Source: a virus
Reading direction: 5' to 3' (one strand)
IMG/VR virus record: IMGVR_UViG_3300045391_003291
Location: 1-63,860 of that record
Length of the DNA: 63,860 nucleotides
Of this stretch, positions 1,665 to 16,800 are shown piece after piece. The notes under the pieces were generated by a model. It saw nothing but the letters and a program-made list of their open reading frames with translations. It did no database searches and was not told the DNA's origin. The translations under genes were made by a program, and so were the position numbers. Numbering within the stretch: the first letter of the stretch is position 1; the number at the start of each line of letters is the position of its first letter.

Positions 1665-2858
1665 TCAGGCCCTGCTAATCGGGATAGTTCGCCCTGTGGG
1701 CGCTACCTGATCCGTGGTGCATACCCAAAGCGTCGGAATGTCCACAACAGCCGGACCAGGGCCGTACAGGTCGGTCAGGTAGATAACGCCGGCGATACTC
1801 TGTGCGTCGTCCTCGCGTAGCTTTTTGGCCAGATCGAACACCGGACGGAAGTCCGTGCCGCCACCTCCCTTTGCCGTTGTGGGAAGCGTGCCGCCCGGCT
1901 CAATGGGATACGTCGCACATATAGCCGCGTCGCAGTCCACGACCAACAGGCTGGACGCTGGATGCTCGGCGCTGCAGTTCGAAATTGCTTCGTTAAACAT
2001 GGAAAGCGTTTGATCGTCGATCGAGCCCGAGGTATCCCGGCAGATCAAGATCAGTCCGGGAGACTCTGACGGACGGCGCCGGGGGTAGATTACACCCTGC
2101 CATGCATGGCGAGAGGGTGACCGCGTCCAATCCGACCGGCTGGGCCCTACCTGATTGATGAATTCGGCGAGCTCCTGACGCCAGTCGATAGGCTGATGCT
2201 TGATGCGCTCCAGCTGCCTTGCAAGGTCCGCCGGGATCGCGCCGCGGCCAAGTGCCTGCGCGGCCTGTGCCGCTTGGATAACGGCCTGCTCCCAATCCTG
2301 ACGGAGCTCCTGAGCGTCTTGTGCGGCCTTGTCGGGCGTCTGACCGGTGTCCGGCTTGGTGAAGGAGCCGCACGGGTTGTTGCCGCTGCCTGAGCCACTG
2401 CCGTCGCCGCCGTCGCCATCATCCTTGGGCAGTGAGTTGTAAATCTCCTCGCAGGACATCCCTTTGTATTGCAGATCGCAGCAGGCGCCTTTCGGCATTG
2501 TGATACCAGGAATGGGCGAGGACGTCTGTCCGGACAGTGTGAGGTTAATTTCATGATCACCTGCGATATTGCCAGCCCCATCCGCTGGCAGGCGCCACAG
2601 ATGGCCGTGTGCGCAATGCAGGGCCTCATGGAGCAGCACAAAACGTAGCTCCTCGTTACTCAGGGACTCGACGAAAGCGCCGTTGTAGATGATGCTGCGG
2701 CCGTCCGTGCACATCGTGCCGCCATGGCCTTTGAACTTGTCGTCGCGGATCGGATTTAGGCGAGACAGCAGCGCCCCATAAAAAGGCTGTTCTGACAGTG
2801 CCCACCAGCGCGCCCGGTCAATCTTCAGGCTGATTGCTTCGTCTTGCTTCGTGCTCAT
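1665..2858 (-). CDS. VWA-domain protein with an N-terminal zincin-like metallopeptidase domain (DUF2201-type architecture)
   Basis: HExxH in LLHEALHCAHGH. MIDAS-like DxSGS in ICRDTSGSID. Partnered with the AAA+ ATPase at 4124. Confidence 0.8.
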   Translation of the reverse strand: MSTKQDEAISLKIDRARWWALSEQPFYGALLSRLNPIRDDKFKGHGGTMCTDGRSIIYNGAFVESLSNEELRFVLLHEALHCAHGHLWRLPADGAGNIAGDHEINLTLSGQTSSPIPGITMPKGACCDLQYKGMSCEEIYNSLPKDDGDGGDGSGSGSGNNPCGSFTKPDTGQTPDKAAQDAQELRQDWEQAVIQAAQAAQALGRGAIPADLARQLERIKHQPIDWRQELAEFINQVGPSRSDWTRSPSRHAWQGVIYPRRRPSESPGLILICRDTSGSIDDQTLSMFNEAISNCSAEHPASSLLVVDCDAAICATYPIEPGGTLPTTAKGGGGTDFRPVFDLAKKLREDDAQSIAGVIYLTDLYGPGPAVVDIPTLWVCTTDQVAPTGRTIPISRA

Positions 2859-2859
2859 C

Positions 2860-3084
2860 TCAAATAGTCCTCGTATTCCACTGTTGAATTGCTCTGGACT
2901 TCACGCTGGCGCTTGATTCATTGCACCAGCCGTTACCGTCCTTTGTTGTCTTGACTTCAAGGCGGATACCGCAAGTACACGACACGATCGCCTCAAAGTT
3001 ATATCCGCAGCGCTCATCTGATCCGCTCGTTGTATGGATGCGCACGGGTTTTCCGCAAAGCGGGCAAGGCTTCATATCGTCCAT
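2860..3084 (-). CDS. Lar-family-like restriction alleviation protein (74 aa)
   Basis: MDDMKPCPLCG ... SCTCG ... AIQQWNTR matches the remembered Lar pattern (KPCPxCG, second Cys pair, C-terminal WNxR). The start was chosen just after the upstream stop. Confidence 0.55.
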   Translation of the reverse strand: MDDMKPCPLCGKPVRIHTTSGSDERCGYNFEAIVSCTCGIRLEVKTTKDGNGWCNESSASVKSRAIQQWNTRTI

Positions 3085-3088
3085 TACC

Positions 3089-3880
3089 TCACACCCCCAG
3101 CATGGAAAGAATGGACGCCGCCTTCGCGGCCGTTTGGTTGCGGGCTTGGTCATCTTCGCGCAGGGCTTCCGCGCTCAGGATGGTCAGCGGTGCCGCCGCA
3201 TCGGCAACCGCTTGCAGTTCCGGGATGCCGACAATGTCAAGATCAGGGACCAGGGCGACCACGTCGCGCAGCTGCTCGAATACGGATGCGTATAGCTTGC
3301 CGTCACTGGCGCAGCGGTCGCGCACGCGCTCCAGAGCTTCGGTAAGCCGCTCGCGCAGTTCATCTGATGCAGCCCGGGCCGACTCCGACAGCCACTCCGA
3401 CCACGCGCCATCAGTCGGGCAGGACAGGTAACGGACATTGAGTCCGAACTTTTCCGCGATAGCGGCCTGCGTCGGCCACATCGACGCATCGTACAAACCA
3501 TTGAGCCGGGCCGGAGCGGCTGCCGCCTCGCTGGCGTAGTCGGACAGGAAGCGGGACACGATGGCGTCATGCTCAGAGCGATAGCGGCGCATCATGTCGG
3601 AGTGCTCCAGATGCCGCGCCGCAGGGATCATGCGCATGCCGTCCTGCACAGACGGAAGGGAAAGGCGCCGATGGTCCGCATAGACGCTCTGGTGAAGGCT
3701 GGCGAGCTCCTGCAGGGCCGGATGGTTGCAGATGGTCACCAGGACGCGCGGGGCGTCGCTGTGGTGCTTCTGGCGGGCCGCGGCGGTTTCTTTCTTATGC
3801 AACTTGGTCGCGCGCCACATGCTGCAGCTGATCGTCGTCAGCATCGTACGGGCGGCAATGCCGGATACGTCGAAAGTCAT
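3089..3880 (-). CDS. hypothetical protein, possibly the DUF3150-like partner of AAA/VWA modules (263 aa)
   Basis: Internal ATG (MTFDVSGIAART...) with GAGGGG RBS. It sits between the AAA+ and VWA genes. The family assignment is from memory only. Confidence 0.45.
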   Translation of the reverse strand: MTFDVSGIAARTMLTTISCSMWRATKLHKKETAAARQKHHSDAPRVLVTICNHPALQELASLHQSVYADHRRLSLPSVQDGMRMIPAARHLEHSDMMRRYRSEHDAIVSRFLSDYASEAAAAPARLNGLYDASMWPTQAAIAEKFGLNVRYLSCPTDGAWSEWLSESARAASDELRERLTEALERVRDRCASDGKLYASVFEQLRDVVALVPDLDIVGIPELQAVADAAAPLTILSAEALREDDQARNQTAAKAASILSMLGV

Positions 3881-3956
3881 TTGAATCCCCTCTAAGGTTC
3901 GGATGATGCGGAGCGCATCTAGCTGCACCCAGTTGCCCAGGTGCAGCCCGCTGCGT

Positions 3957-4115
3957 TCACTCAATGTCGATTTGCCGACGCTCCGCCTCGTCTTTAGCAA
4001 GCTCTGCATAGTCAGAGCGGCCTGCCTCTGTTTCCTTGAGATAGACGCCACACACCTGATTAGCCGTGCATGCTCTCAAGTAGTCTTTGAATTCCTGACG
4101 GTCTTTAGAGGACAT
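3957..4115 (-). CDS. small hypothetical protein (52 aa)
   Basis: Internal ATG (MSSKDRQEFKDY...) of ORF 3957..4166, downstream of the AAA stop. Confidence 0.4.
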   Translation of the reverse strand: MSSKDRQEFKDYLRACTANQVCGVYLKETEAGRSDYAELAKDEAERRQIDIE

Positions 4116-4123
4116 GGCAGTGA

Positions 4124-5149
4124 TTAGATGAAAATGGCTTGATTTGCCGTGAACCACTGCACCCAATCCGGTTCCCCGCCCAGCTTGGCACCCAGCCTGC
4201 GAAACACGTCACGCGCCAACAGAGCACCGTAGACGCGCGGCATGCGTGCCAGATACTGAACGACGGCCCGGGTGTGCTCCGGCTTTGCTGCCATGCCTAC
4301 CATTGCGCAGACGAGGTAAAGCGCCTGCGGATCGGTCGGGATAATGGCGCCCTTGGGGTCCATGAATACGGCGTCGGGCGTAGGCACTTGCTCGGCCAGC
4401 TTGGCAAAGGCAAGAAACTCGGCGGCAGCCGGCTTGCCGATGGCTGCCGCTATGTCGGCCAGCTGCTGTAGACCATCCTTCCAGAGCTTTACGACTACTT
4501 CCCAGCTGCGGAAGTCCGGCATGCGGATAGACGGATCGGCGCAGGGCTTCCATGCGTGCAAGGTGCGGCCAGAGGTCGAGCGGTGCCACGCAATGACTTC
4601 GGGCGCCGCTTCCTGCTCAATCGCCCAATTCACCCAGTTGGAAACCTCGTCCTCCCACGTTCCCAGCATTACCCCGCCGGCCGGGTCATCGGTAGCACCA
4701 GGGGTCGGCAGCTGGAAGGCGAGGTCGAAGCGGGACCGGAGCGGCTCGCACAAGGCAGTAACGCCGGCCTTGTCGCCGGGCCGATTGGTGGCGCCGCAGA
4801 TCAACACGGATTCGGAGAGCTCGCCGGCATCAAACAAGCGCATCAATGCGGCCTGTACGTCCATCGGAGCTTGTCCAAGGTCGTCCAACAGTAGCAGGGT
4901 CGGCTCGTTTGTCGTCTTGAGATCGTTCAGCAGTTCCAGCGGTAGGGAACGCGTGACGCCGGCCCCGTGATCCGGGACAAGGCATCCGCCGAAGTCCACA
5001 CGCTCCGACAGACTGGCGCGCATGACGATCAAGCGGCGGCCTTCCTTGGCGGCAGCGGCCCGAAGGCGCGCAGTCTTGCCAGTCCCGGGAGGACCGACCA
5101 GAAGCACGCGGCGATCCGCCCCGATGTAGCGTTCGATAGTTGTTTGCAT
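4124..5149 (-). CDS. MoxR/CobS-like AAA+ ATPase (341 aa)
   Basis: Walker A in VGPPGTGKTA and Walker B in LLLLDDLG. GAGGGG RBS before MQTTIERY. Confidence 0.85.
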   Translation of the reverse strand: MQTTIERYIGADRRVLLVGPPGTGKTARLRAAAAKEGRRLIVMRASLSERVDFGGCLVPDHGAGVTRSLPLELLNDLKTTNEPTLLLLDDLGQAPMDVQAALMRLFDAGELSESVLICGATNRPGDKAGVTALCEPLRSRFDLAFQLPTPGATDDPAGGVMLGTWEDEVSNWVNWAIEQEAAPEVIAWHRSTSGRTLHAWKPCADPSIRMPDFRSWEVVVKLWKDGLQQLADIAAAIGKPAAAEFLAFAKLAEQVPTPDAVFMDPKGAIIPTDPQALYLVCAMVGMAAKPEHTRAVVQYLARMPRVYGALLARDVFRRLGAKLGGEPDWVQWFTANQAIFI

Positions 5150-5225
5150 CGTAGACCCCTCAAAAGGTTTGGATGGTGCGGAATGCACCCCGTAGAACCC
5201 GCAGCGCAGGCCCTACAGGCTGGAT

Positions 5226-6512: not shown

Positions 6513-7051
6513 AACGCCATCTCTACCAATCAGCCATGGAGCAACGTTTCGACGCGCTGAAGGCCTCCAGGGAGGCCGGCAGACAGGGCATTCAGAAGCT
6601 ACTGAAGGGCTACCATATCGATAGCCTGACCAAGGTCCAACAGACAGGGATATGCGTCTTACTTGGCTTGGATACGGTCGTTAAAGGGACCTTTGTCCGT
6701 CTAGTCGACCCGCCGAGCTTCGAACATGAAATCGGCGCACTGACAATCAGGTTTGCATGGCATGTGGAGGTATTAAAAACAGATCGCCTTCAAGCCATGC
6801 TTGCGCCTGATTTTGAGCCAAAGCCGCTTAAGAACGTTTGGACTATGGATGTAGGCCGCTCTATGGTTTGGTTTAGGGTGGTTACAGCAGACGGACGCGT
6901 GATGTCAATGCAAAGCCCTCACGTGTACCCCAAGCAATATCCGCACACTAGTATCGAAATAAAGGCTCGACAGTTGGGTAAGAGTAAGGCTCTAGAGCAA
7001 TTAACGATCGGTATGATTGATCGAATCAGATCGGATATCGACCGTGAGTAA
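6509..7051 (+). CDS. paralog family member b (180 aa)
   Basis: ATGA overlap. Motifs HIDSLTKVQQTGICVLLGL and HEIGALTIRF. Confidence 0.7.
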   Translation: MKRHLYQSAMEQRFDALKASREAGRQGIQKLLKGYHIDSLTKVQQTGICVLLGLDTVVKGTFVRLVDPPSFEHEIGALTIRFAWHVEVLKTDRLQAMLAPDFEPKPLKNVWTMDVGRSMVWFRVVTADGRVMSMQSPHVYPKQYPHTSIEIKARQLGKSKALEQLTIGMIDRIRSDIDRE

Positions 7052-8160: not shown

Positions 8161-8603
8161 GAACCCAGTTTTACGAAATCTGTTTGGTCGTTGATCTATC
8201 GGCTGATATCAACCTTGCGGTTATGCGCCGGCTAAAGGATCTATATTTTGACGGCCGCCGCGCACTTAAGAAGCTGTGCGAATGGACGCCGATAGAGAGT
8301 TTGTGTGAGCAGGATCAGTTAGCTATTGCGGCCGTCTGTGGCGTTCCACTGGTTTGGACGGCGGTCCCGCAAAGATTGGTCTACATATCTCCGGATAGTG
8401 ATTACCGATTTGAACATGAGTTCGACAGGCTGACTGTGTTTTTTTCAAAGGAATACAGAACATTCAGTCACGCACAAATGCTCGCAATGCATGAGCGTAC
8501 CGCCATCGTGGCGCCGCGCCAGCTTGATTGCCTGATTTACAGCAGCCTACGTCACCGTCTGCTCGTTAAAACCTCACCTCAACGAAACGCGTTATCGCCC
8601 TAG
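8157..8603 (+). CDS. paralog family member f (148 aa)
   Basis: GTGA overlap. Motifs IESLCEQDQLAIAAVCGV, HEFDRLTVFF and FSHAQM. Confidence 0.65.
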   Translation: MRTQFYEICLVVDLSADINLAVMRRLKDLYFDGRRALKKLCEWTPIESLCEQDQLAIAAVCGVPLVWTAVPQRLVYISPDSDYRFEHEFDRLTVFFSKEYRTFSHAQMLAMHERTAIVAPRQLDCLIYSSLRHRLLVKTSPQRNALSP

Positions 8604-8844
8604 ACCCGCAGGTCTGGTGCGAACCACAGAGCACCACGGAAACCGGCACCGTATCCAGCCCAGCCGCGCCCTACCCCCAGGCGCCCTAAACTCGCAAGCG
8701 GCGAGCAAGGACAAACGGTCGAACACGGGAAACGAAGCCCGCGCACCGCCACACAAAGGCGGCCAGACCGCAATACGGCACCGCTTCCGCGCAAAAACCC
8801 CTACGCGCCTCGGGGTTTGCCTCAGATTTGTCCAGATCAAAGAC

Positions 8845-8883
8845 TTATCCACAGACAAACCGCAGTTATCCACACAATCCACA
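8845..8883 (+). promoter_or_regulatory. Cluster of DnaA-box-like 9-mers: TTATCCACA (8845-8853), TTATCCACA (8866-8874), CAATCCACA (8875-8883)
   Basis: Two exact matches to the TTATCCACA consensus, 21 nt apart and in the same orientation, plus one 7/9 copy. Confidence 0.6.
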
Positions 8884-8946
8884 GCTACCAGGGAAGCAGC
8901 CAAGCGCTCTACACTGACGACACATCGTCACACCAGAGCGCCGACA

Positions 8947-9537
8947 ATGGATCAACTCCCGCAGACACAAGGCAAGCCGTCAACCGTCACAAAGCGGCCC
9001 GATGATCTGCCGTATCGCTACCAACCGCCCAAGTTAAAGCGCATCCCGCGCAACGTCCCACTTGGTAGCAAGCCAGACCACGAAGCCCAGATTCTGCAAG
9101 CCATCGAATGCGGTCAGACCATGCATGAGATAGCCGAACAGATCGGACGCGATGTCTCCATACTCTCAAGATGGCTCGCCGATCCACAAAGAGCAGCAAA
9201 GGCGAAAGAGTCGCGCCGGCTTCAGGCCGTGTACTGGGATGAGCTCGCGGAAAGGACGATTAAAGAGTTGCCCTCAAACGCGACACCAGCGGCAATGCTC
9301 CGCGCACGTGAACTTGCATCGCATTACCGCTGGCGCGCCAAGTCCATTGCCCCGCATGACTACGGCGACAGGCCGCTGATAGATGCCGAGCAGGAGGCAC
9401 AGCGTCAGGCTCAGGCACTGAACGGAGACACGGCCCGCCTCGTCCTTGGTGGCATCCTTGCCGCCATCGGACTGCAGGTCTCAGAGCTCCCCAAGGACAG
9501 AGCAGGCAGAGTAATCGATCACGATTCAACAACTTAG
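8947..9537 (+). CDS. HTH protein, candidate small terminase subunit (196 aa)
   Basis: Internal ATG (MDQLPQTQGK...). HTH-like segment QTMHEIAEQIGRDVSILSRW. The C-terminal ARELASHYRWRAKSIAPHDYGD resembles the TerS motif (...KWxxxKxxPKxYGD). Confidence 0.5.
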   Translation: MDQLPQTQGKPSTVTKRPDDLPYRYQPPKLKRIPRNVPLGSKPDHEAQILQAIECGQTMHEIAEQIGRDVSILSRWLADPQRAAKAKESRRLQAVYWDELAERTIKELPSNATPAAMLRARELASHYRWRAKSIAPHDYGDRPLIDAEQEAQRQAQALNGDTARLVLGGILAAIGLQVSELPKDRAGRVIDHDSTT

Positions 9538-9613: not shown

Positions 9614-9771
9614 CGTTCCCTTGCTGTTCGGCTGGTGCTGCTGTGCCCATCCATTCCAAAAGGTACCGGGCGCCCAAAAGGAGGCTCCAAGCGCGACCCG
9701 GGGGGTGTGCGAATTCACGAGCGGCCCGAAATCTAAATCACCACCCACTCTTCGTACTTTCATTAAACTGT

Positions 9772-9811: not shown

Positions 9812-10258
9812 ATGTCTGGTATCTACCTGCCGAAGGAAATGGTTGCTTCGAGCCAGCGAAGTGTTGGGATACGGACTCCGGTGGTTCTTGGTCCTTACGA
9901 CACGAAGCTTTCTCCTGACGACGAGAAGAATTTTCTGGCGTGGTCGGCGAAGTACCCTGATCGAACTGGGTCGACGGATTACGACATGCGTGGGTGGTGG
10001 AAGGAGCATGGAAGTGTTGATCCAGGAGGCGGTCATTTCTCGGATAAGTACAAGAAGCCAAACCACCCGACGTTTTCTGACGAGAGCATTTACAGCGGGG
10101 TTGATGAGAACGTCGGTGGTAAGTGGGTAAAGGGGGATGGTGGTAAGTGGTCTTTTTCAGCGTCACAAACAAACCTGCAGCATCATTCAGAAGACGAGCT
10201 TCGAAAATATTTCGAACGCGTTGAGTCTGGTAATACGCTTGTTCTCCCAAAGCGGTAG
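9812..10258 (+). CDS. hypothetical protein (148 aa)
   Basis: ORF track, with GGAGAGG RBS. Confidence 0.7.
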   Translation: MSGIYLPKEMVASSQRSVGIRTPVVLGPYDTKLSPDDEKNFLAWSAKYPDRTGSTDYDMRGWWKEHGSVDPGGGHFSDKYKKPNHPTFSDESIYSGVDENVGGKWVKGDGGKWSFSASQTNLQHHSEDELRKYFERVESGNTLVLPKR

Positions 10259-10285
10259 ACGCTCTTCGTCCTTTCTCGTTTTTGC

Positions 10286-10314
10286 TTGAACGTGTGACGC
10301 TTCCGCGTTACAGT
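10286..10314 (+). promoter_or_regulatory. Promoter P1: TTGAAC-N17-TACAGT with embedded GTGAC-N8-GTTAC
   Basis: Hexamers and spacer counted by hand. It is near-identical to P2 (shared GTGTGACG......CGTTACAGTGC). Confidence 0.6.
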
Positions 10315-10319
10315 GCATT

Positions 10320-10416
10320 GGGGGGACATGGCATGGCCGCTGGTACCCAGCCTTGGGGGATCTCGAGGAGCGCACTGGGCTATCGAAGTGAGGTTCGATT
10401 CCTCCGCCTTCCACCA
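10320..10416 (+). ncRNA. tRNA-like structured RNA/leader (RNA1): T-arm mimic plus acceptor-like helix with G3:U70, A73 and an encoded CCA
   Basis: It starts 6 nt after the P1 -10. The 3' end reads TGAGG-TTCGATT-CCTCC-GCCTTCC-A-CCA, and the 5' GGGGGGA pairs with GCCTTCC. The interior does not fold as a cloverleaf. Confidence 0.4.
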
Positions 10417-10436
10417 ATTACGAACTGGAGATTTCT

Positions 10437-10751
10437 GTGGATATGAATCAGCGGAGCGGGTTGATCGGTGCGGGTCGGTCTCAGGTGAATACGGCTTGTG
10501 TGGAGGTACGTCGGTCGCAGGTCGAGGAGCAGCTGTCGAGGCAGCTGCAGACGATTTCGAGTCTGAGCGAGACGGCGCAGGCTTTGATTGCCCGGTTGAC
10601 TCCGGTGTTGCGGGAGGCTGACAAGGTCGGTCCCAACAGCGTGCCGCAGGAATACCTGGTGCCTGTGGCGGCGTCGGTCCGTTCCAATACGGACGGTATC
10701 AATAACGTCATGCTCATGCTGTCGGATGTGTTGGAGCGTCTCGAGGTCTGA
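10437..10751 (+). CDS. hypothetical coiled-coil protein (104 aa)
   Basis: ORF track with GTG start 7 nt after GGAG, followed by a strong terminator. Confidence 0.65.
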   Translation: MDMNQRSGLIGAGRSQVNTACVEVRRSQVEEQLSRQLQTISSLSETAQALIARLTPVLREADKVGPNSVPQEYLVPVAASVRSNTDGINNVMLMLSDVLERLEV

Positions 10752-10767
10752 CCGAATCGATCCAACG

Positions 10768-10792
10768 GCCCCGGCAAGTCCGGGGCTTTTTT
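10768..10792 (+). terminator. Intrinsic terminator GCCCCGG-CAAGT-CCGGGGC followed by T6
   Basis: Read directly. Confidence 0.85.
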
Positions 10793-10806
10793 ATGACCAG
10801 CGGTAG

Positions 10807-10835
10807 TTGCGTGTGTGACGGCACATCGTTACAGT
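10807..10835 (+). promoter_or_regulatory. Promoter P2: TTGCGT-N17-TACAGT with embedded GTGAC-N8-GTTAC
   Basis: Counted by hand; a paralog of P1. Confidence 0.6.
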
Positions 10836-10841
10836 GCGTGT

Positions 10842-10952
10842 GCTGGTGCTGGCCCTTACGGACAGCTCTGCGACCGGATGGCAAGGGTGGTGGTTCGAAT
10901 CCACGAGCGGGGGATCCCGTGACGGCGTGACGGCAAGGACCCTGCCACCAGC
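10842..10952 (+). ncRNA. Structured leader RNA2, closed by a 7-bp helix (GCTGGTG/CACCAGC) and containing a T-arm mimic (GGTGG-TTCGAAT-CCACG)
   Basis: It starts 6-7 nt after the P2 -10. Helices drawn by hand. It contains a tandem GTGACGGC GTGACGGC. Confidence 0.35.
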
Positions 10953-10966
10953 TTTACGAGGAGCGC

Positions 10967-11104
10967 ATGAAAAAGGTTGAACCCGAACGTGTTGAGTATC
11001 CACCGAAGGTATGTCCTGAGTGCGGTCGGGCTATTCGCAAGCCAGCCAAGAGCGGGGCGCAGCGGACTCGGGAGTACCGGGATCGGAAGCGGCAGGCGTC
11101 GTGA
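10967..11104 (+). CDS. small basic protein (45 aa) with one CxxC
   Basis: Hand translation MKKVEPERVEYPPKVCPECGRAIRKPAKSGAQRTREYRDRKRQAS, with GAGGAG RBS. Below the ORF-track cut-off. Confidence 0.5.
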   Translation: MKKVEPERVEYPPKVCPECGRAIRKPAKSGAQRTREYRDRKRQAS

Positions 11105-11289
11105 CATACGAACAGGCGATCAATCTCAAGTCGTTCCAGCACCACTGCCAATGCGGAGGATATGCCTGGAATTTCAACGGTCGAGATGAGGAGCAGCCGC
11201 ATATGTCGTGGTGTCCTCAGTTCGATGAATACGCGGAGTGGCGTGCCGCGTTGAAGCAGGGTCAATCTGGAGGTGTGTCGTGCGGGTGA
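11101..11289 (+). CDS. hypothetical Cys-containing protein (62 aa)
   Basis: GTGA overlap with the previous stop; in frame with ORF 11020..11289. Confidence 0.5.
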   Translation: MTYEQAINLKSFQHHCQCGGYAWNFNGRDEEQPHMSWCPQFDEYAEWRAALKQGQSGGVSCG

Positions 11290-11576
11290 ATGTTTACGCG
11301 GAAGAGATGACGGACCGGGTCGAGATCGTCGAGAAGGAGACGGCGGACGGGACGTTCACGGGCCTTCGTATCTATCTCGAGCTGCCAGTCACGGTGCCTG
11401 GTCCGGCCGGCGGCAACACGGTCTACAGAGGACCGTTCATGCACAAGCCTGGGGACGACGACTCGAGCGCGGTCACGTTCTGGGGCAAGCAGGATCTGCG
11501 CGCGGTGTTGCGCAAGGCTCTGGAGGCACTGGATGAGCACTACGACAAACGAGATTCCGGCGGTACCACCGTCTGA
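11280..11576 (+). CDS. hypothetical protein (98 aa)
   Basis: GTG after GGAGGTG; in frame with ORF 11238..11576. Confidence 0.55.
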   Translation: MRVNVYAEEMTDRVEIVEKETADGTFTGLRIYLELPVTVPGPAGGNTVYRGPFMHKPGDDDSSAVTFWGKQDLRAVLRKALEALDEHYDKRDSGGTTV

Positions 11577-12033: not shown

Positions 12034-12165
12034 TGGTCTGCGTACCATGCCAACGGTTCTGGGCGTGGCTATGCGCCCAGTTCCCGTGGCTGTTCAAGCA
12101 GTGCCCGCTGACGTTTCAAAGCGTCAGCGGTCCTGCCAGGGGGGAGTTCAAATCGGAGGGGTCTG

Positions 12166-12701: not shown

Positions 12702-12777
12702 GCAGCCGTAGCTCAGTTGGTAGAGCGGCAGCCTTCCAAGCTGTCTGTCGCGGGTTCGAGCCAAGCCGGCTGCTCCA
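12702..12777 (+). tRNA. tRNA-Gly(UCC)-like, 76 nt with encoded CCA and a T stem with only 3 of 5 pairs
   Basis: Hand-drawn cloverleaf: acceptor GCAGCCG/CGGCTGC, D arm GCTC-AGTTGGTA-GAGC, anticodon arm GCAGC-CTTCCAA-GCTGT, T arm GCGGG-TTCGAGC-CAAGC, discriminator T. Confidence 0.6.
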
Positions 12778-15273: not shown

Positions 15274-16800
15274 GTGGACCAGATGGCTCAAATCCTGGCC
15301 ACACTTCCACAGGAAGTGGTCAGACAGATCCCGGCGGACTGGCTCAAGCTTTCTCCAACTGAGCTCGTCACCAAGCTGACCGCTCACATCCAGACGCAGG
15401 AAAAGAAAAACAGGCTGATCAATTTCAAGCCGTTCCCGAAGCAGATGGAGTTCTACCGGCACGGGCTTACCCATCGGGAAAGGCTATTCCGCGCCATCAA
15501 CCAGGTCGGCAAGACCATGGGCGCAGCGGTCGAGACGGTCTACCACCTGACTGGGAATTATCCGAACTGGTGGCCAGGTATCCGGTTTGTGAACGCTACC
15601 CGCGGCTGGGTGATGTCGGAGTCGATGCAGTTCTCTCGAGACGCAGCGCAGAAGCTGTTGCTCGGGGAAAGCCCTGAGGAATGGGGCACTGGCCTTCTGC
15701 CAGCGGCATCGATCAAGAAGATCGTGCGCGCCAGCCACTCGGTTCAGGACGCCGTGGACACCCTGCGCGTGAAGCACATCAGCGGAGGTGTCAGCACCCT
15801 GGTGTTCAAGTCGGCTGAAGTCGAGCAGAACAAGCTCGGCGGCGACACGCTGCATTTCGCCTGGATGGACGAGGAGCCTCCGTACGGTCACTACGAGGAG
15901 GTCTATACAAGAACCAACGTCCACAAAGGACCCGTATACACAACCTTCACCCCGTTGAAGGGCGCTACACAGCTGGTCGTAGAGCTCATCGATAAGGCCA
16001 AGCTGGCCGGCTCGAGCGTCGCTGACATCCGCTGGACCATCGACGACGAGTCGATCTACAGCGATGCCGACAAGGAGGCGATGAAGCTTAAGTACGCCAA
16101 CTCATCCGACAAGGACGCCCGTCTCTACGCTGAGCCGACGCGTGGTTCAGGTTCTGTTTTCCAGTCGATCAACGAGGATTCGATCAAGTACCGCCACATC
16201 GATATCCCGGATCACTGGTACCGCATCTGCGGAATGGACTTCGGCATCAAGGACCCTACCTGCCTTGTCTACATCGCTCACGATCGTGACAACGATGTGT
16301 ACTACCTGTACGACGCCTACGGACAGACGGACAAGCCAGCGGCGGTGCACTACGAGGCCTGGAAGTCGAGGGGCGAGCATATCCCCGTGGCATGGCCGGC
16401 AGACGGCCTGCAGCGCGGAAAGGCAGACGGCATTCAGCTCAAGCGCGTGTACGAAGGCTTGGGGATGTACATGCTGTCGGATCCAGCGATGCTCCCGGAG
16501 ACGAACGCCAGGGGAGAGAACAATCGCAGTAGGACCTCGGTTGAAGCGAGTCTCGGCGACCTGATCGAATTGATGCAACAAGGCCGCTTCAAGGTTGCTG
16601 CCCACCTGGAACCGTGGTGGAGAGAATTCAAAGCCTACTTCCGCAAGAAGGACGGCAAACTCAATGATGCCGACAACCATTTCATCGACGCCACGCGCTA
16701 TGCCTTAATGATGGAAATGCAGGGTGCAGGCGTACAGGGTGGACGATATGAGAAACTGCGTTACACCAGAAACAGCAGTTTCCGTTCGCGTTATGCATAG
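15274..16800 (+). CDS. terL: terminase large subunit
   Basis: Walker A-like NQVGKT, Walker B-like FAWMDEEP, and nuclease-region motifs GMDFG and HFIDATRYAL. GGAGG RBS. Followed by the portal gene. Confidence 0.9.
   Translation: MDQMAQILATLPQEVVRQIPADWLKLSPTELVTKLTAHIQTQEKKNRLINFKPFPKQMEFYRHGLTHRERLFRAINQVGKTMGAAVETVYHLTGNYPNWWPGIRFVNATRGWVMSESMQFSRDAAQKLLLGESPEEWGTGLLPAASIKKIVRASHSVQDAVDTLRVKHISGGVSTLVFKSAEVEQNKLGGDTLHFAWMDEEPPYGHYEEVYTRTNVHKGPVYTTFTPLKGATQLVVELIDKAKLAGSSVADIRWTIDDESIYSDADKEAMKLKYANSSDKDARLYAEPTRGSGSVFQSINEDSIKYRHIDIPDHWYRICGMDFGIKDPTCLVYIAHDRDNDVYYLYDAYGQTDKPAAVHYEAWKSRGEHIPVAWPADGLQRGKADGIQLKRVYEGLGMYMLSDPAMLPETNARGENNRSRTSVEASLGDLIELMQQGRFKVAAHLEPWWREFKAYFRKKDGKLNDADNHFIDATRYALMMEMQGAGVQGGRYEKLRYTRNSSFRSRYA

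Follow-up and report, generated by a model that had tools for sequence, protein, structure and literature searches.

We analysed a stretch of phage-like DNA (IMG/VR record IMGVR_UViG_3300045391_003291, positions 1 to 63,860; a 63.9-kb contig with 57% G+C, here called the window) for a 97-nucleotide (nt) element at 10320-10416 that ends like a transfer RNA (tRNA) and forms the 5' leader of a gene for a 104-amino-acid (aa) protein. This element (element 1) is read here as the scrambled remnant of a tRNA gene, kept as the leader of a messenger RNA (mRNA), a reading to which we give about an even chance. It is favoured because of the position of the element, its serine/tyrosine (Ser/Tyr)-type acceptor strand, the absence of a tRNA body, the small duplications and the lack of a thermodynamic signal. 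A first-pass annotation, made from the sequence alone, had described element 1 as a promoter-driven tRNA-like RNA with an alanine-type acceptor and, as a fallback, as a relic or attachment-site (att) copy of a host tRNA 3' end. The tRNA derivation of its top half is supported, with T arm, 3' acceptor strand and CCA in place and D and anticodon arms absent, and the relic part of the fallback is the best-supported reading; that element 1 serves as an amino-acid acceptor is unlikely.

The features on which the annotation was built can be read directly in the sequence. A promoter-like site (P1, TTGAAC-N17-TACAGT, 10286-10314) lies directly upstream, a run of six G residues (10320-10325) begins 6-7 nt past its -10 hexamer at the predicted start site, and the T arm, with a GTTCRANYC loop, adjoins a 7-nt 3' acceptor strand, the discriminator A73 and an encoded CCA, all present as in a canonical tRNA. 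The proposed pairing of the G run with the 3' strand also holds: G1-C72, G2-C71, G3.U70, G4.U69, G5-C68 and G6-C67 can form, i.e. six of seven positions with two G.U pairs, and the register that begins at 10321 gives G3.U70 and G4.U69 likewise. In an alternative closure of the T arm, G10388 pairs with C10405 and U10389 is bulged. The T-loop 11-mer GGTTCGAWTCC occurs twice in the window compared with 0.04 expected occurrences, and none of 100 shuffles reached two; its presence is not a matter of chance. The body contains a tandem duplication of CATGG (10327-10336) and can form a 3-bp hairpin (10330-10338) together with either GCUGG-UAC-CCAGC (10339-10351) or a 17-bp irregular arm with a GGAU loop (10341-10385). 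Three short hairpins had been claimed for 10329-10368; this is roughly right, RNAfold having returned two small ones (10330-10338 and 10339-10351) and longer alternative pairings.

Element 1 is part of a compact transcription unit. The 31-nt promoter motif TTGNNNGTGTGACGNNNNNNCGTTACAGTGC has exactly two copies in the window (0.00 expected), at P1 and at its paralogue P2, and each precedes one T arm, the T loops lying 52-73 nt behind the promoters. P1 fits only 8 of 12 positions of the sigma-70 consensus and was not listed by a generic sigma-70 scan. A GGAG Shine-Dalgarno sequence (10425-10428) precedes the 104-aa open reading frame (ORF), whose product belongs to no known family. P1, this ORF and a terminator-like hairpin form a moron-like layout between the small and large terminase genes, with predicted promoter and terminator activity, and because the unit is complete the promoter would be kept whatever the leader does.

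No tRNA body was found between the two ends of element 1. ARAGORN at default settings and Rfam at gathering thresholds, both proposed as checks by the first-pass annotation, detected neither a tRNA nor a transfer-messenger RNA (tmRNA) there and reported only the tRNA-Gly(TCC) gene of the window. In E-value mode (E up to 10; also with only 131 nt searched) Rfam gave no tRNA match, just the 15-nt T hairpin at 6.5-9.9 bits (beta_tmRNA 9.9 bits). Relaxed ARAGORN settings returned tRNA-Ser(CGA), or tRNA-Pro(GGG) with an 18-nt insert. The inner 61 nt were shuffled 500 times with the acceptor and T arm fixed, and tRNA calls at the same 3' end were counted at the three settings that gave a call for the real sequence: shuffled bodies were still called tRNA in 13% (ps95 with introns), 46% (ps90 with introns) and 89% (ps80) of cases, and the body therefore carries no significant cloverleaf signal. 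In the best reading of an anticodon arm three of five stem pairs form, and neither a D arm nor an anticodon arm of 5 bp with a 7-nt loop is present. ARAGORN, Rfam and the shuffle test thus agree with the annotation that the D/anticodon body is missing. A permuted tmRNA call obtained with ARAGORN at -ps80 only was rejected as not credible. A likeness of the body, seen by eye, to the D arms of tRNA-Tyr and tRNA-Ser and to a CGA anticodon loop was also rejected, its alignment scores being equal to those of shuffles, and comparison of the upstream 69 nt with Ser/Tyr tRNA bodies revealed no similarity (z -0.1 to 0.7).

The alanine-type label hangs on one wobble pair and was not sustained. G3:U70, A73 and G2:C71 of the alanyl-tRNA synthetase (AlaRS) identity set are present in both registers; G4:C69 and a regular helix around 3:70 are missing, position 4:69 being G.U and thus part of a tandem wobble. 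The exact 22-mer GGTTCGATTCCTCCGCCTTCCA had no match in 185,579 species genomes (one genome per species). The relaxed pattern GGTTCGANTCCNNNNCCTTCCA had at least 120 matches in these genomes, and among the 120 listed 96 were type-II tRNA-Tyr(GTA) genes, which have a 5' GGAAGGG, and a few were tRNA-Ser. In metagenomes, the pattern GGTTCGATTCCNNNGCCTTCCACCA matched 16 times, 13 times in tRNA-Ser and once in tRNA-Tyr. Judged by these matches, CCTTCC-A-CCA is the acceptor strand of a type-II tRNA-Tyr or tRNA-Ser, and since it is of this type the simplest reading of G3.U70 and G4.U69 would be two A-to-G transitions (A3 to G and A4 to G) in a stem of the GGAAGG type rather than a design for alanine. 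The tRNA-Ser matches include tRNA-Ser(CGA) genes of 86 nt, in which the acceptor has 8 bp, the T stem has 4 bp and the D stem is long; they belong to arrays on metagenomic contigs that contain 9-28 tRNA genes, and the Rfam tRNA model at its curated threshold misses tRNA-Ser genes of this 8/4 shape. Allo-tRNAs of the (8/4) type have been reported in phages, some of them with G3:U70 (Mukai et al., 2017, PMC5389517), and in E. coli irregular tRNAs found in nature that carry G3:U70 are charged with alanine (PMC5389517). Over its last 28 nt, element 1 is one base off the (8/4) tRNA-Ser(CGA) of the metagenomic loci L314-L317; as a pointer to a specific tRNA-Ser ancestor this 27/28 identity was discounted, most positions having been fixed by the search pattern. 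A covariance model of 30 tRNA-Tyr genes scored element 1 at 15.7 bits (E ~0.004), with the alignment confined to acceptor, stub, T arm and ACCA and with 35 model positions skipped.

Folding yielded no stable tRNA-like structure when element 1 was run through RNAfold, another check that the annotation had proposed (z +0.6 to +1.6, T stem at 0.03). The z-scores of the minimum free energy (MFE) were +0.58 for element 1, +0.34 for element 2 (described below) and +1.57 and +1.43 for the full leaders; as modelled, shuffled sequence folds at least as well as these leader RNAs, and perhaps better. In the predicted ensemble of element 1 the acceptor helix has a pair probability of 0.88 and the T stem one of 0.03, the latter being disfavoured because CCUCC prefers G10355-10359. 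Forcing acceptor and T arm together cost 1.8 kcal/mol (-33.6 compared with an MFE of -35.4 kcal/mol) and produced a four-way junction with the 3-bp hairpin and the 17-bp irregular arm, so constrained a tRNA-like shape being possible in the model, though not indicated. For the 5' helix, 0.77% of all 7-mers in this genome pair at six or more of seven positions with GCCTTCC, which gives a 42% chance of such a partner within 70 nt and a 3.9% chance within +/-2 nt of the predicted start; four such partner 7-mers lie upstream within element 1 itself. The pairing of the G run is weakly significant, and noteworthy only if transcription starts at the G run, as predicted.

A second element, which the first-pass annotation did not mention, lies behind P2. 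From its predicted +1 position, element 2 can form an outer helix of 6-7 bp (GCUGGU(G)/(C)ACCAGC), which encloses a perfect T hairpin (GUGG-UUCGAAU-CCAC, 10890-10904) and an inner 8-bp helix between GGCA-A-GGGU (10880-10888) and ACCCUGCC (10939-10946), followed by ACCA (10947-10950); GTGACGGC is tandemly duplicated at 10919-10934. Predicted pair probabilities were 0.9 for the outer helix, 0.68 for the inner helix and 0.58 for the T stem. The T arm adjoins the 5' strand of the inner helix, not the 3' strand, which gives the element a permuted look. Rfam in permissive mode gave no match to element 2. The tRNA-Tyr covariance model recognised only the T arm on the plus strand (10.8 bits) and a 71-nt tRNA-like segment on the minus strand (10876-10946, 13.5 bits), where the inner helix makes a 7/7 acceptor beside the palindromic TTCGAA hairpin. 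Alignments of the elements with each other (MAFFT) were unreliable and were set aside. We propose that element 2 shares its origin with element 1, as a second unit in which the scrambling went further. A scan of IMG/VR with GGTTCGARTCC-N15-45-CCACCAGC returned 94 matches, nearly all of them ordinary tRNAs with a chance CCACCAGC, and disclosed no family of element 2; just the contig L053 is similar. In this terminase-related phage, 8205-8250 holds an orphan T arm (CACGG-TTCGAGT-CCGTG), then the hairpin GGUC-AAGGGAA-GACC and then ACCAGC; this segment resembles the 3' part of element 2 (GGCA-AGGACCC-UGCC-ACCAGC) and has a folding z-score of -1.87.

Close relatives of element 1 were absent from the collections searched. 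The DNA from 10200 to 11000 had no match in 50,697 phage records, and neither the exact 27-mer of the 3' end nor GGTTCGATTCCTCNGCCTTCCACCA was found in IMG/VR. The 104-aa protein has no homologue and is carried only by contigs identical to the window; two public contigs are identical copies of the region, with a single-nucleotide polymorphism at 6757, outside element 1. The nearest relatives by large terminase are at most 49% identical, and a covariance model of element 1 (R2) found no homologue in 86 related loci, across which a few orphan T arms were seen. At the same position, some of these relatives carry real tRNA genes. In the closest relative (L005, terminase 49% identical), where the stretch from small to large terminase gene is arranged alike, and in L006, the gap past the small-terminase-like gene contains TTGCAC-N17-TACAGT, tRNA-Pro(CGG), an 84-nt tRNA and a 99-aa gene, and a second TACAGT site past the 99-aa gene precedes tRNA-Met; in three further loci (L010, L028 and L054) tRNAs lie 1-2 kb ahead of the large terminase gene. 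From L005/L006 and these three relatives it follows that elements 1 and 2 occupy the slot of promoter-driven tRNA genes in this lineage. The 84-nt tRNA (L005 7577-7660, also in L006) has good acceptor, D and T arms and an anticodon arm disrupted by a tandem duplication of ~15 nt (CACAGGAC(T)ATCCT); it scores 46.6 bits in Rfam and is missed by ARAGORN. The small duplications of CATGG in element 1 and GTGACGGC in element 2 parallel the one that disrupts this tRNA, and erosion of tRNA genes is visible in the lineage in these three duplications and in the mismatches of the tRNA-Gly of the window. The proteins encoded downstream in L005 and L007 were considered as counterparts of the 104-aa protein and are not homologous to it.

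From these features we infer a transcription start, a fold, possible processing and a history for element 1. The ancestor would have been a phage tRNA gene, probably of a long type-II, Ser/Tyr-like kind and possibly with the 8/4 shape of allo-tRNAs, that was once co-transcribed from P1 with the downstream gene. Insertions, deletions and small tandem duplications would then have scrambled the D, anticodon and variable regions, leaving the T arm, the 3' acceptor strand and the CCA as survivors and a G-rich 5' end still able to close a 6-pair helix with the 3' strand. At present the sequence would be the 97-nt 5' leader of a self-contained promoter-gene-terminator unit, and its remaining role, if any, is most likely that of a leader: pairing of the 5' end could shield the mRNA, or the tRNA-like 3' end of element 1 could be a cleavage site for tRNA-processing enzymes of the host. 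Several observations weigh against this history. Decay is uneven, both elements keeping a perfect 11-nt T-loop consensus and element 1 also its CCA and six of seven acceptor pairs, whereas nothing else can be recognised; point mutations by themselves would be insufficient to produce this, and scrambling by insertions and deletions or selection on the top half would be needed. Useless DNA is usually deleted from phage genomes, and two leaders of ~100 nt persist in one phage. In both elements the closing helix begins 6-7 nt past the -10 hexamer, which looks designed, and no intermediate forms and no close relative were found in any collection searched.

The selective integrity of the top half is what a functional tRNA mimic would predict. 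In this explanation, which we consider unlikely, the RNA would start at the G run, fold into a four-way junction of acceptor helix, mini hairpin, long closed arm and T arm (i.e. the tRNA-like domain of tmRNA with its helix 2 closed by a loop) and be trimmed to the CCA; its users might be AlaRS via G3:U70, the CCA-adding enzyme, RNase P, EF-Tu or, with the RNA as a decoy, a toxin directed at tRNA 3' ends. G3.U70, A73 and G2-C71 in both registers, the start of the helix at the predicted +1 (p ~0.04), a tRNA-like fold just 1.8 kcal/mol above the MFE, the alanylation of irregular G3:U70 tRNAs in E. coli (PMC5389517) and the second promoter-proximal T-arm element in the window are consistent with it. 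However, the T stem has an ensemble probability of 0.03, the mismatches A7 x G66 and U49 x C65 fall amid the 12-layer stack, 4:69 is G.U rather than G-C, element 1 runs into the mRNA with neither a terminator nor an obvious 3' processing signal in between, and ARAGORN and Rfam gave no match to tmRNA or other tRNA-like families; with T arm and acceptor not canonically adjacent in element 2, a shared top-half function is hard to define. In a minimal version, quite unlikely in our judgement, transcription would yield the top half (acceptor helix, T arm and ACCA) starting with its very first base, and a long closed arm would stand in for the D and anticodon arms, as in a tRNA-like domain of tmRNA devoid of the messenger part; once trimmed at its 3' end, this RNA would be charged via G3:U70 or serve as a sink for enzymes or defence toxins directed at tRNA acceptor ends; element 2 would then be a permuted second version. 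Were element 1 instead a leader that acts in cis and has nothing to do with tRNA mimicry, either a 5' helix that stabilises the mRNA or a pairing switch might be at work, CCUCC and CCUUCC alternating in the latter between the G runs and the Shine-Dalgarno sequence, with the T loop as a structural module. The helix at the predicted +1 in both elements, the competing pairings (G10355-10359 against the T stem in element 1, outer against inner helix in element 2) and the location of both elements directly upstream of ribosome-binding sites fit such a leader, yet the Shine-Dalgarno sequence and start codon are not sequestered by the elements in the predicted folds, folding energies are worse than shuffled and there is no conservation, and we regard it as decidedly improbable.

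The sharp boundary within element 1, with the last 28 nt of tRNA grade and the upstream 69 nt unlike tRNA bodies, could also mean that a recombination or attachment-site event captured no more than the final 28 nt of a tRNA gene, from the host or from elsewhere, and that the pairing with the G run is coincidental, as the 42% chance of some 6/7 complement within 70 nt would allow. This is the att-copy half of the fallback in the first-pass annotation, and it fared poorly: GGTTCGATTCCTCCGCCTTCCA is absent from the 185,579 species genomes, a negative that is provisional as regards the host, no integrase adjoins the element (the resolvase-type serine recombinase is 3.5 kb away), the second T arm behind a twin promoter stays unexplained, and the one-base difference from tRNA-Ser is made to look small by the search pattern. 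Classical att-type tRNA 3' halves do occur in the related metagenomic phages L064 and L306, and on balance an att origin is improbable. They take the form ..GG-TTCGATC-CC..-ACGGCCC-A-CCA (L064 at ~430-470, L306 on the minus strand near 9059), are preceded by the anticodon-loop-like CTTTTAA or CTTAATC, and one is situated at a contig end and the other overlaps the 3' end of a tyrosine integrase gene. A divergent tRNA that still decodes, e.g. an 8/4-type tRNA-Ser(CGA) or one whose anticodon arm has an insertion, is very improbable indeed. The relaxed ARAGORN calls (tRNA-Ser(CGA), or tRNA-Pro(GGG) with the 18-nt insert), the 4-bp T stem typical of 8/4 tRNAs and the same 3' end in real 8/4 tRNA-Ser(CGA) genes, a kind of tRNA known from phages (PMC5389517), speak for it, but these calls are no better than those of shuffled bodies, the acceptor has six of eight pairs and the anticodon stem three of five, and Rfam gives no tRNA score.

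Table 1. Coordinates of element 1, of the features around it in the window and of allo-tRNA-shaped genes in metagenomic loci.
Feature	Coordinates	Strand	Remarks
Promoter-like site P1, TTGAAC-N17-TACAGT	10286-10314	+	within the 31-nt motif 10286-10316 shared with P2
5' acceptor-like strand	10320-10327	+	GGGGGGA from 10320, or GGGGGAC from 10321 (ARAGORN choice)
Body of element 1	10328-10388	+	no significant cloverleaf
T arm GAGG/UUCGAUU/CCUC, 4 bp	10389-10405	+	U10389 x C10405 mismatch; hairpin 10390-10404
3' acceptor strand GCCUUCC; A10413; encoded CCA	10406-10412; 10413; 10414-10416	+	
Downstream ORF, 104 aa	10437-10751	+	public gene callers start at ATG 10443
Intrinsic-terminator-like hairpin, 8 pairs, then TTTTTT	10767-10787	+	closes the P1 unit
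Promoter-like site P2, TTGCGT-N17-TACAGT	10807-10835	+	paralogue of P1; repeat family D7, 80% identity over 25 nt
Element 2	10842-10952	+	leader of a 45-aa ORF (10967-11104); behind P2, 500 nt past element 1
tRNA-Gly(TCC)	12702-12777	+	only canonical tRNA of the window; same inter-terminase block; ARAGORN and Rfam
Small-terminase-like gene	8617-9537		
Resolvase-type serine recombinase, 249 aa	13874-14623		sole recombinase; 3.5 kb from element 1
Large terminase gene	15274-16800		
Allo-tRNA-shaped tRNA-Ser, 86-88 nt	L314 3147-3232; L316 8382-8467; L317 545-630; L323 218-305		D stem 5-6 bp

Both elements are located inside a block of small genes bounded by the small-terminase-like and large terminase genes. 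The window encodes a P22-type portal, a large terminase, a capsid protein, a DnaB helicase, ERF/YqaJ recombination genes and the resolvase-type serine recombinase; no tyrosine integrase was found among the 30 window ORFs scanned, and no integrase domain in the neighbours of element 1. The T stem of tRNA-Gly(TCC) contains two non-standard pairs in mid-stem (C x A and G x A) and is otherwise regular (Rfam 55.7 bits). The protein encoded at 11238-11576 (a 112-aa ORF, ~98 aa in public gene calls) belongs to phrog_20753, with no further known function; its 2,549 homologues, up to ~80% identical, occur in very different phage contexts without such elements. A 132-nt gap (12034-12165) ahead of a 109-aa gene holds two strong hairpins, CTGGGCG-TGGCTATG-CGCCCAG and CGCTGACG-TTTCAAAG-CGTCAGCG. 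On the minus strand (1665-5188), a DUF2201 metallopeptidase/VWA-like protein (397 aa) is encoded two genes from an AAA ATPase (354 aa), an unusual pair in a phage of such size. A third copy of the element, considered at 9620-9750, was rejected; this region holds a different conserved motif common to relatives. The motif is non-coding, lies just 3' of the small-terminase-like gene and consists of AAGGTACCG (nine invariant bases), ~28 nt and CC(C)GGGGG. It is conserved in the window (9660-9705) and three distant relatives (L005 7078-7125 and 7255-7300, L007 7234-7280, L008 6213-6260), L005 having three additional copies of AAAGGTACCGG, and could be a packaging or small-terminase binding site.

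If element 1 is a remnant, it is an ordinary record of phage tRNA genes eroding into mRNA leaders and a caution that simple transitions in a Ser/Tyr-type stem can create G3:U70. Should its top half be functional, element 1 would become the first case of a DNA phage encoding an acceptor/T-arm mimic that stands alone, and would bear on how phages handle tRNA-directed host defences and the tRNA-processing machinery.

Among known systems, the tRNA-like domain of tmRNA shares G3:U70, A73 and CCA with element 1, as well as the T arm, the lack of an anticodon arm and, in one plausible fold, a long helix in place of the anticodon stem; unlike tmRNA, element 1 has no tag reading frame, no pseudoknots and no match to tmRNA models beyond the 15-nt T hairpin, it has two central mismatches, and thermodynamics does not favour the fold. 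The bacterial Y-RNA-like YrlA RNAs likewise contain a tRNA-like module in which a T arm is present and an anticodon arm absent and, as in element 2, paired 5' and 3' ends around an internal T arm, whereas the two elements are mRNA leaders rather than separate genes and have no match to the Rfam model; no Ro/Rsr-type protein or TROVE domain was found among the 30 window ORFs scanned. RNA C and RNA D of phage T4 are small RNAs from its tRNA gene region with unknown roles (PMC3014915); they are discrete stable species, whereas element 1 is known here as a sequence. With att-site tRNA 3' fragments element 1 has in common that just the 3' part of a tRNA is recognisable, in contrast to the lack of an adjoining integrase or a match in the 185,579 genomes and to the second T arm behind a duplicated promoter. 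The (8/4) and (9/3) allo-tRNAs, some of which have G3:U70 and are charged with alanine and among which pseudogenes with broken pairs have been described (PMC5389517), share the 4-bp T stem GAGG/CCUC and the Ser/Tyr-type acceptor sequence, and differ in that element 1 has six of eight acceptor pairs in either register, no valid anticodon and no proper variable arm. Compared with phage tRNA genes and pseudogenes that accompany protein genes, element 1 lacks D and anticodon arms, is 97 nt long, goes undetected by ARAGORN and Rfam, and has its predicted start at position 1, leaving no 5' leader for RNase P; its T arm, 3' acceptor strand, discriminator and encoded CCA are as good as those of a tRNA, and it occupies the same inter-terminase slot behind the same TTGNNN-N17-TACAGT type of site as the tRNAs of L005. 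Element 1 is most likely a further example of a known process, the erosion of tRNA genes in phages.

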